From assembly GCA_037446215.1 (NCBI GenBank), contig JBBIJB010000047.1, positions 7,181 to 18,674 on the forward strand: a stretch of 11,494 bases of DNA, in the 5' to 3' direction. The position numbers were made by a program, and so were the translations under genes. The notes under the pieces are model-generated. The model did not search any database. It worked only from the letters and a program-made list of their open reading frames with translations, and had not been told where the DNA came from. The stretch comes from Armatimonadota bacterium (GTDB lineage: Bacteria; Sysuimicrobiota; Sysuimicrobiia; Sysuimicrobiales; Humicultoraceae). This document shows, one piece after another, positions 10,129 to 11,494 of the stretch; the first letter of the stretch is position 1; each line of letters opens with the position of its first letter.

Positions 10129-10146
10129 GCCTCTTGCCCTACCACA
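10121..10146. other. Hairpin at the convergent HAD / hypothetical gene junction, no U-tract
   Basis: Minus-strand RNA UGUGGUAGG-GCAAGAGG-CCUACCGCA: 9-bp stem with one G-U pair; the arms contain the two genes' TAG stop codons. Confidence 0.5.
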
Positions 10147-10600
10147 GGTGAGAGAATCTGGCCGCGAACCTGCGTTCCATCTCCTCCCGGTGCAGGTCGT
10201 AGACCGGACAGCCGCGCAGCATGCACAGGTGCAGCGCCGTATTGCAGTACGCCTCATCGACCTCCCAGCATGCGTGGCTGACGTTGTAGGCGGCGCAGAC
10301 GCCCTTCTTCGCGTGAACCGCGATCGGCTCGACGAGGACCTGTTCGGGCGTCTTCCGCTCGCCGATCGGAGGCTCCTGAGCTTGCCGCACCAGCCGAAGG
10401 AGCGGGCGGTCGTCCGCCTGCGATCCTGGGTCAGGCCGCCCCGACTCCTCGCGGGGGATACTCCCCGGAGGAGTCTGCCCCCCCTTCTCCACGGTCTCGT
10501 CCTTGCGCGAGGGTCTCCCGGTCAGGACCTCCATCTCCCGGGAGGCCTCCTCGATAAGGCTCCTAACGCCGCGCCGCAACTCCTCGCGTCCGCTCGGCAT
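10139..10600 (-). CDS. Hypothetical ParA-partner protein with C-terminal Cys-rich (CW-type) putative metal-binding domain
   Basis: Very strong SD AGGAGGTGATC (10615-10605) 4 nt before ATG 10600; overlaps the parA end by 38 nt. Protein: N-terminal GREELRRGVRSLI, P/G/S/E-rich linker, then C102-x8-C111W-x6-C119-x6-C126-x4-C131PVY, ending in Trp153. Confidence 0.85.
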   Translation of the reverse strand: MPSGREELRRGVRSLIEEASREMEVLTGRPSRKDETVEKGGQTPPGSIPREESGRPDPGSQADDRPLLRLVRQAQEPPIGERKTPEQVLVEPIAVHAKKGVCAAYNVSHACWEVDEAYCNTALHLCMLRGCPVYDLHREEMERRFAARFSHLW

Positions 10601-11471
10601 GGGCGATCACCTCCTGGGCGAGACTGGTATACTCCCTTGCGCCGCGTGACTCCGGACTGGTCACGAAGAGCGGCAGCCCCGCCATCGAAGCCTCTACGAG
10701 CTTGATGTTGAAGTGAACCGTGGTCTGGAATACCTTCTCCGGGAAGAAGTCATGGATGCCGGAGAGGATCTCCTTGCTGATCGTTGTGCGCGAGTCGTAC
10801 ATCGTCGGAAGCACACCCAGGATCTCCACGTTGTGGCCCACCTCATCCCGGACCACCTTGAGCGTCCTGAGCAACTGCCGCATCCCCACCAGCGCGTAGT
10901 AGTGAGTCTGGTTGGGAATTATGATCCCGTCGCACGCCACGAGCGCGTTCAGCGTGAGAAGCCCCAGCGACGGGGGGGTGTCGATGACGATGAACGCGTA
11001 CCGATCACGCATGGCCCACAGGCGCCTGCGCAGGGCGTTCTCTCGACCGATACGCGCGGCCAGCTCGAGCTCGGCCGCAGCGAGATCTATCGAGGAAGGA
11101 GCGATCTCCAGCCCCTCGACACGGGTTTGGCGTATCACCGCCTCGAGCTGCAGGCCGTTCTCGTGGTCCGGGTCGATCAGGACGTGGTAGATGGTCCGCT
11201 GCAGGTCCGCGGGGTTGATGCCCAGGCTTATCGTCGCGTTGGCCTGAGGGTCGAGGTCGATCAGCAGGCTCCTGTGCCCCGCCGCCGCGAGGGAAGCGCT
11301 CAGGTTCACGGCGGTAGTCGTCTTGGCGCAGCCGCCCTTCTGGTTCACGAGCCCGATTATCAGTGCTCCCTCCGGCATGGCGGTACCCGAAGACGCCGTC
11401 TCGCCGATCGGCGCCGGATCGGCGGCCGGCTCCCCGGCCGCTTGGTAGCGGGCTCCTGCTGCTGGCTCCAT
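10563..11471 (-). CDS. parA: ParA/Soj-family P-loop ATPase
   Basis: Deviant Walker A NQKGGCAKTTT, IDLDPQANAT, LAAAELEL, IDTPPSLGLLTLNAL, GVLPTMYDSRT, SRGAREY..LAQEV. Start uncertain: ATG 11471 (GGGGAG 11 nt upstream), ATG 11378, or further upstream since the frame is open to the window edge. Confidence 0.93.
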   Translation of the reverse strand: MEPAAGARYQAAGEPAADPAPIGETASSGTAMPEGALIIGLVNQKGGCAKTTTAVNLSASLAAAGHRSLLIDLDPQANATISLGINPADLQRTIYHVLIDPDHENGLQLEAVIRQTRVEGLEIAPSSIDLAAAELELAARIGRENALRRRLWAMRDRYAFIVIDTPPSLGLLTLNALVACDGIIIPNQTHYYALVGMRQLLRTLKVVRDEVGHNVEILGVLPTMYDSRTTISKEILSGIHDFFPEKVFQTTVHFNIKLVEASMAGLPLFVTSPESRGAREYTSLAQEVIAHAERTRGVAARR

Positions 11472-11494
11472 CGGTAGGCGCGCTCCCCGAAGAC

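Follow-up and report, generated by a model that had tools for sequence, protein, structure and literature searches.

ATPases of the ParA/MinD family give spatial order to chromosomes, plasmids and organelles as well as to the division site. In type Ia (ParABS) systems, an N-terminal motif of the LG[RK]GL type is the ParA-activating peptide of the partner protein ParB/Spo0J. In type Ib partition systems such as ParF-ParG and delta-omega, the partner is small, an Arg-bearing N-terminal segment activates the ATPase, the C-terminal domain binds the target, and the protein may also bind upstream of its own operon. MipZ, PomXYZ and PldP are extra or orphan division-site regulators of the ParA family in organisms that lack a Min system. 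An N-terminal interaction peptide followed by a cargo-binding remainder has been described as the general plan of ParA/MinD partners, the peptide usually being positively charged and disordered; many of the ATPases are described there as "orphans" whose partner and cargo are unidentified (PMC10241942). For the carboxysome-positioning partner McdB, an invariant C-terminal Trp is reported to be needed for binding of the carboxysome or cargo (PMC11321042). Here we describe a two-gene module at the end of contig JBBIJB010000047.1 (positions 7,181 to 18,674) from an Armatimonadota bacterium of the phylum Ca. Sysuimicrobiota (CSP1-3; assembly GCA_037446215.1). The whole stretch analysed, 11,494 nucleotides (nt), is referred to as the window. 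It contains a second ParA/Soj-type ATPase gene, distinct from the canonical parA of the same genome, and directly downstream a small gene, here called the partner gene. On balance, we consider it probable that the latter represents a partner family not described before, which serves a second ParA positioning system present across the phylum.

The two genes overlap by 38 nt, and the Shine-Dalgarno sequence of the partner lies inside ParA codons. The spacing from GGAGGTGAT to the partner ATG (10598..10600) is 5 nt, and a motif of the GGAGGT or GAGGT type is visible at the same place on inspection of the 20-nt strings upstream in related loci. With the window included, 59 of 60 gene pairs have the partner start exactly 38 nt ahead of the ParA stop. 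In the sole exception, L063, ParA runs on to a later stop. The ParA stop codon is TAG in all 59 of 59 pairs. The overlap, and with it apparently the internal ribosome-binding site, is kept in 59/60 pairs over seven families, despite changing flanking genes. Variation within the overlap falls on third positions of the partner frame, which are first positions of ParA, and the ParA tail varies. Since these changes are synonymous for the partner while the ParA tail changes, selection acts on the N-terminal peptide of the partner and not on the ParA tail. Judging from the gene arrangement, the partner is made from the same mRNA as ParA by translational coupling.

The partner falls into no described family. 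Searches against Pfam and NCBIfam returned no family at E ≤ 1 except a meaningless 13-bit match to SSB, and the protein therefore carries neither a ParB_N domain nor a helix-turn-helix (HTH) model. It has no match in PHROGs, no Pfam match to the MinE family (PF03776, which is also absent from the source genome), and only one chance match in a sequence-profile search of the PDB (E 0.35). Among 5.8 billion clusters we found 125 relatives with full-length coverage, all unnamed or "hypothetical", and an exhaustive phmmer search over 1.84 billion representative proteins yielded only 58 partner clusters. The named sources of these relatives are all metagenome-assembled genomes of Ca. Sysuimicrobiota/CSP1-3, often labelled Armatimonadota, Firmicutes or Bacillota. 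Within the phylum, the partner is present as a single copy in 91 of 94 genomes, covering all 31 genera and all 54 high-quality genomes. This count takes in two unpublished genomes, G017 and G025, and becomes 89/92 when they are left out; the three genomes in which the partner is missing are 65–72% complete. By these searches, the partner represents a genuine family that does not extend beyond Ca. Sysuimicrobiota. The literature searched contains no description of it, and neither the parA gene nor partition, cell division, MinD or carboxysomes come up in the main text of the Sysuimicrobiota/CSP1-3 genome papers.

Linkage to the ATPase gene was surveyed in 62 loci, one genome per species. In 61 of them, ParA is the next gene upstream and has the same orientation; the remaining locus begins inside the partner gene. 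Wherever both positions can be read, neither gene is seen alone. The pair occurs once per genome, belongs to the core of the phylum and has a syntenic place among housekeeping genes, which rules out an integrated plasmid or a mobile partition cassette.

The partner consists of an N-terminal amphipathic helix, a disordered linker rich in Pro, Glu and Ala, and a Cys-rich C-terminal domain. The N-terminal peptide is the best-conserved region, with R5, L8, R10, G11 and R13 identical in 59/59 sequences. Its core, L-R-R-G-V-R-S-L-I, is identical at five of nine positions to L-G-R-G-L-G-A-L-I of the ParB from the same genome, a resemblance judged by eye. The helix is our candidate for a ParA-binding, ATPase-activating peptide. 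The linker varies in length, which accounts for the range of about 109 to 367 amino acids (aa) in total length of the relatives. In most sequences it contains a short motif, RP[IL]LRLVR, in which P66, L68, L70 and R72 are each at least 90% conserved (37 sequences). The long forms of the partner are carried by family f4, and an Arg/Lys-rich stretch stands just ahead of the C-terminal domain in long forms. The f4 long forms show a looser, VLAVEVRE-like motif in place of RP[IL]LRLVR.

The C-terminal domain has five cysteines (C102, C111, C119, C126 and C131), and we refer to it as the Cys5 domain. Across the same 37 sequences, its invariant residues are, in order, G, C, A, C, W, A, C, A, L, C, R, C, P, L and E. 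The last residue is W in 36/37 sequences and Y in one. The Cys pattern suggests that the domain probably binds metal, as a Zn or Fe-S module; no His is invariant, so any such site would be all-Cys. The charge of the domain is about neutral. Models of the full-length protein and of the Cys5 domain are all-helical without any strand and of moderate confidence (mean predicted local distance difference test score, pLDDT, of 70.3 for the domain-only model), and no PDB match reaches Z 5. The best match in a fold search with the full-length model has Z 2.8. With the domain model, VIA-align gave a best Z of 2.6 among 48,161 chains, Foldseek found no match in the PDB, and a feature-based comparison with the ESM Atlas reached at best 0.84, to unnamed clusters and below lead level.

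A sequence-only reading of the window had already described the overlapping pair with a Shine-Dalgarno sequence in the terminal ParA codons, a low-complexity linker of about 70 residues, a Cys-rich C-terminal domain ending in W, and the lack of both a ParB CTPase motif and an HTH. The sequence bears out the first of these, the N-terminus agrees with the letters quoted in that reading, residues 28–99 are predicted to be disordered, the five Cys and the terminal W are in place, and the Pfam and NCBIfam searches agree with the last. The same reading depended on homologues lying directly 3' of parA and on a conserved N-terminal peptide, both of which hold in the survey, the one exceptional locus having no upstream DNA. 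It also depended on the partner not being a degenerate ParB or a known partition protein, which the Pfam, NCBIfam, PHROGs and PDB-profile searches uphold.

The ParA-like open reading frame (ORF) scores above the Pfam cut-offs for AAA_31 (183.9 bits) and CbiA (74.2 bits), and below every NCBIfam equivalog cut-off (minD_bact, 38.9 vs 212.9 bits; ParA_partition, 96.4 vs 180 bits). Among solved chains, it comes closest to a ParA family protein (8ray_B, E 1.2e-55), Thermus thermophilus Soj (1wcv) and Helicobacter pylori Soj (6iub). In 57 relatives the ParA ORFs are 265–298 aa long and start 6–14 codons ahead of NQKGG. From this position, the true start in the window is probably M32 (base 11378), giving a protein of 271 aa. 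We aligned 39 orthologues that are 62–82% identical to the window ParA, with numbering on the 271-aa form. K14, G15, G16, C17, K19, T20, T21 and T22 are invariant, and likewise D41, D43 and D133, which we take to be Walker A' and Walker B residues. The Walker A Cys (KGGC[GA]KTT) is present in 39/39 orthologues, whereas the canonical ParA and the solved Soj proteins have Val there. This Cys could have a bearing on a thiol or metal theme that ParA has in common with the Cys5 partner. The C-terminal tail is Arg-rich, and a Lys aligns with the Arg of Soj NVRLAEAP, presumably a DNA-binding residue. From its residues, the second ParA looks active. It also appears ParA-like and not MinD-like, as suggested by the basic tail, the lack of a MinD equivalog score and the Soj/ParA proteins as nearest chains.

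The source genome also contains a canonical pair, a point raised by the sequence-only reading and settled by its presence on contig C22: parA (266 aa) is followed by parB (301 aa, ParB_N 121.6 bits). The second ParA is 47% identical to this canonical ParA. Of 34 phylum genomes with a completeness of at least 95%, 33 have ParB_N, in most cases as one copy. With canonical parA-parB elsewhere and ParB_N nearly phylum-wide, the module is additional to ParABS and not a replacement for it. The ORFs just upstream of the canonical parA resemble rsmG and jag by eye.

Compared with type Ia ParABS, the module has a Soj-type ATPase, a partner gene directly downstream and, in the partner, an L-x-R-G-[LV]-x-x-L-I core that resembles the N-terminal peptide of ParB. 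However, the partner lacks the ParB_N/CTPase, HTH and dimerisation domains, is half the size of ParB and has the Cys5 domain. McdA/McdB is likewise a two-gene system of a ParA and a small partner with an N-terminal interaction region, a disordered or variable middle and a conserved C-terminal aromatic residue. In contrast, McdB has no Cys-rich folded domain, and the terminal W of our partner is predicted to sit in a folded helix and not in a free tail. Type Ib systems share the small partner, the flexible or helical N-terminal Arg segment, the C-terminal target domain and possibly an upstream site. The module differs from them in being a chromosomal core pair in housekeeping synteny with a full-size Soj-like ParA, and in showing neither a detectable ribbon-helix-helix fold nor repeats. 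The Cys5 domain has a Cys/Trp pattern similar to that of the two-CW domain of NCBIfam model NF045718 (CW ... C ... C ... CP), although the partner itself does not match the model at E ≤ 1. The two are weakly linked by P0172, a singleton protein of 144 aa (E 3.1e-5); among 1.84 billion proteins, no other relative of the Cys-rich domain turned up outside the phylum. P0172 contains two Cys/Trp-rich modules, one like the partner domain and the other matching two-CW at 14.7 bits against a cut-off of 35; a word-index search found no relatives of it. The two-CW domain is itself without known function, and a full-text literature search for "two-CW domain" returned no papers. The logic of the module is that of known ParA-partner systems, with an unrelated partner that has a new domain.

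The gene anatomy and coupling, the conservation and phyletic distribution, and the lack of known domains are observations; each biochemical step of the mechanism that we propose is inferred. An ATP-bound ParA sandwich dimer would bind the nucleoid through its basic surface and Arg-rich C-terminal tail. The partner helix, REELRRG[VIL]R, would dock on this dimer and stimulate ATP hydrolysis and release, like the N-terminal peptide of ParB/Spo0J. The disordered linker would serve as a flexible tether, and the Cys5 domain, probably a Zn or Fe-S module, would hold the positioned target.

Several points weigh against such a positioning system. Binding of the partner to ParA is a proposal drawn from genomic evidence. 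A complex prediction with a ParA dimer, two ATP, two Mg and partner residues 1–40, run on separate alignments and without controls, scored 0.00 and speaks neither for nor against binding. The sequence-only reading had likened the partner N-terminus to the basic peptide of ParB. By eye, the core resembles that of the genome's own ParB, and it is invariant across the family. Residues 1–27 contain five Arg and six Glu, are not net positive, and are predicted to form a stable helix, unlike the usual partner peptide. Six representative entries (P0134, P0143, P0149, P0157, P0160 and P0166) show the C-terminal domain only; these may be truncated gene calls. The neighbours in related loci carry no cargo gene and are housekeeping genes: an mnmA-like gene, a CCA-adding enzyme, FBPase, HAD, an AsnRS/AspRS-type synthetase and rimP-nusA-infB. 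Shared ancestry within a single phylum may be enough to account for the conserved gene order. Finally, a DNA-binding partner fits at least as well with the upstream motif, the basic stretch and the terminus proximity described below.

If the module positions a cargo, this must be something that every member of the phylum has. Carboxysomes and other bacterial microcompartments (BMCs) are ruled out for the source genome and the phylum by the absence of shell genes: PF00936 has no match in the source genome (91% complete), of 60 phylum genomes with at least 90% completeness one has shell genes, and no BMC genes lie in the module neighbourhood. The McdB analogy drawn by the sequence-only reading is upheld for the conserved terminal aromatic residue but fails on context in a phylum almost without BMCs. 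A chemoreceptor array is ruled out for the source genome, which has no chemoreceptors. FtsZ is present there, and the best MinD match reaches 52 bits against the cut-off of 212.9. MinC is not found above cut-off in any of 94 phylum genomes and is absent from the source genome, as are MinE and DivIVA. The single ParB_N of the source genome is that on contig C22, which leaves no Noc. In a phylum without MinC and a genome without MinD, MinE, DivIVA or a Noc-type second ParB, the divisome is the most attractive cargo candidate. The extra ParA, the presence of FtsZ and these absences are reminiscent of MipZ, PomXYZ and PldP. This likeness is one of gene content, and the Pfam MipZ match on the ATPase covers the P-loop only (residues 38–77). 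A role in division-site placement is conjectural.

A DNA target is suggested by a bipartite motif, RGGA-N14-RGTCGAAC, found as one copy on the operon strand upstream of the operon in 46 of the 62 loci, with a second CGAAC often about 7 nt past it. The strict motif has 48 matches on both strands of 627 kb of related loci, 46 of them at the parA operon and two elsewhere. It lies 11–160 nt ahead of parA, or 480–640 nt where an extra gene intervenes, and keeps its position when the upstream gene changes. The extra gene, seen in several families (L055:4771-5163, L039:4639-5154), encodes 130–171 aa without a Pfam match and may be a third operon member. Five good genomes contain 1–4 motif matches each, one of them at the module in G001, G039, G069 and G083. 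In the source genome, the motif upstream of parA (contig C77) is degenerate and there is no strict match genome-wide. These counts rule out a general promoter. As RNA, the motif has no Rfam family in the window and seven other sources and no consensus structure in 36 sequences, which favours a DNA site, perhaps an operator, a promoter or a site resembling a centromere. The module could accordingly be a chromosomal partition system of a new kind, alongside the canonical one. The partner would be a centromere-binding protein whose Cys-rich domain, together with the Arg/Lys-rich stretch of the long forms, binds the motif while the helix activates ParA, segregating or positioning that chromosomal region, which in some genomes lies near the presumed terminus, and perhaps repressing its own operon like type Ib proteins. 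Chromosome position bears on this as well. In G001 (contig of 3,154,138 bp), dnaA and parB, which mark the origin, lie at 1.03 Mb, where the GC skew turns positive, and the skew turns negative at 2.62–2.64 Mb, a switch that presumably marks the replication terminus. The module, at 2.690–2.6915 Mb, is 50–71 kb from this switch and nearly opposite dnaA/parB. It is within about 50 kb of the switch in G082 (C44, about 108–158 kb) and about 90–110 kb from it in G083 (C12, about 180–290 kb). Over these three genomes, which belong to two families, the module is 10–110 kb beyond the switch. The terminus proximity is suggestive, but G069 and G059, which are larger and belong to family f4, show no skew switch within about 100–190 kb of the module, and the three positive genomes, being related and syntenic, count as one or two observations. 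There is also only one motif copy per locus, and iterated centromere-like repeats beyond chance two-copy matches are absent from the window and five related loci. The strict pattern is missing from 16/62 loci, the Cys5 domain is about neutral with neither a detectable DNA-binding fold nor known relatives, and the motif could be the operon promoter or the operator of another regulator. We regard a partition system as unlikely, though the strongest of the alternatives.

The cysteines allow a different function, in which the partner is a metal- or redox-sensing regulator of ParA. The Cys5 domain would sense Fe-S, Zn or the thiol state, the helix would switch the ATPase, and ParA would act on a target such as DnaA, the nucleoid or FtsZ, in the manner of Soj and MipZ. 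Five invariant Cys in a small domain, the invariant Cys for Val in the ParA Walker A motif, which hints at a shared theme, the tight 1:1 coupling of expression and the lack of nearby cargo genes are all consistent with this. On the other hand, the cysteines may be purely structural, for example as Zn ligands, and a long, variable, disordered linker suits a tether better than an allosteric regulator. The domain has no relative with a known sensing role, its only outside match being the singleton with the sub-threshold two-CW module. Such a regulator seems to us rather improbable. We give slightly less credence to a composite of these ideas, in which the Cys5 partner binds the motif and a ParA gradient holds the near-terminus region and the FtsZ ring at mid-cell, replacing Min, Noc and DivIVA and responding to redox state or metal through the P-loop Cys and the Cys5 domain. 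It is also conceivable that the two neighbours are merely co-expressed and that the partner function is unrelated to ParA. The evidence for a functional link is all genomic, and the entire region keeps its gene order in the phylum, so adjacency alone could be inherited. However, the exact overlap and the internal ribosome-binding site persist while the flanks change, constraint on the partner is strongest where it resembles a ParA-activating peptide, and neither gene is found without the other where both positions can be read. Mere co-expression is therefore very unlikely.

Through the module, an orphan-type ParA obtains a partner from unusually clean genomic evidence. This partner belongs to no known family and has a small Cys-rich domain of a new kind; its gene is part of the core genome of an uncultured, widespread phylum without MinC. 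If the proposed mechanism is true, it would represent a new class of ParA partner, and a 27-residue peptide and a 54-residue domain would provide a handle on the placement of the division site or chromosome terminus. Given their small size, the two proteins could be studied biochemically without the organism in culture. Chemoautotrophic enrichments have been described for the phylum (PMC11604079).

Table 1. Features of the ParA-partner module and its surroundings. Positions refer to the window unless a locus or genome is named.
Feature	Position	Strand	Remarks
Second ParA/Soj-type ATPase gene	10563..11471	minus	302 aa from first ATG
Deviant Walker A, KGGCAKTT	11316..11339	minus	Signature Lys and family-specific Cys; from translation
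Shine-Dalgarno of partner, GGAGGTGAT	10606..10614	minus	Inside ParA E-V-I codons
Dual-coding overlap, 38 nt	10563..10600	minus	ParA C-terminal Arg-rich tail and partner residues 1–13
Partner gene	10139..10600	minus	153 aa; family without earlier description
Partner N-terminal amphipathic helix, residues 3–27	10520..10594	minus	Predicted, AlphaFold2 pLDDT 74–88
Partner core REELRRG[VIL]R..I, residues 5–16	10553..10588	minus	Invariant across family
Partner Pro/Glu/Ala-rich disordered linker, about residues 28–99	10304..10519	minus	Predicted, pLDDT 45–54
Partner linker motif RP[IL]LRLVR, residues 65–72	10385..10408	minus	From conservation
Partner C-terminal Cys5 domain, ~54 aa	10142..10303	minus	Five invariant Cys, CW, CP, terminal aromatic
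ribF, truB, DHH/DHHA1 phosphoesterase, rbfA, DUF503 gene		minus	Pfam-confirmed
infB, ylxR, nusA, rimP, class II Asp/Asn/Lys-type tRNA synthetase		minus	Pfam-confirmed
HAD hydrolase gene		plus	Pfam
Upstream motif, examples	L023:5148-5173, L037:5051-5076, L047:5166-5191, G001:C1:2691471-2691496		

The window is the terminal 11.5 kb of its contig, from a source genome of 2.16 Mb. Upstream of the listed ParA start, the contig runs on for 23 bases and then stops, which places the 5' region of the operon on another contig, C77. The end of C77 (C77:10203-10304) repeats the first 34 ParA codons at 91% amino-acid identity, the counterpart in the window being 11379..11494. Strain variation is probably the cause of the assembly break at parA. 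The last ~250 bases of C77 contain an ORF of ~48 aa with one predicted hydrophobic helix, directly upstream of parA and on the same strand. Absent from other families, this ORF is also present in the closer relatives L006, L008, L010, L014, L016, L024 and L027.

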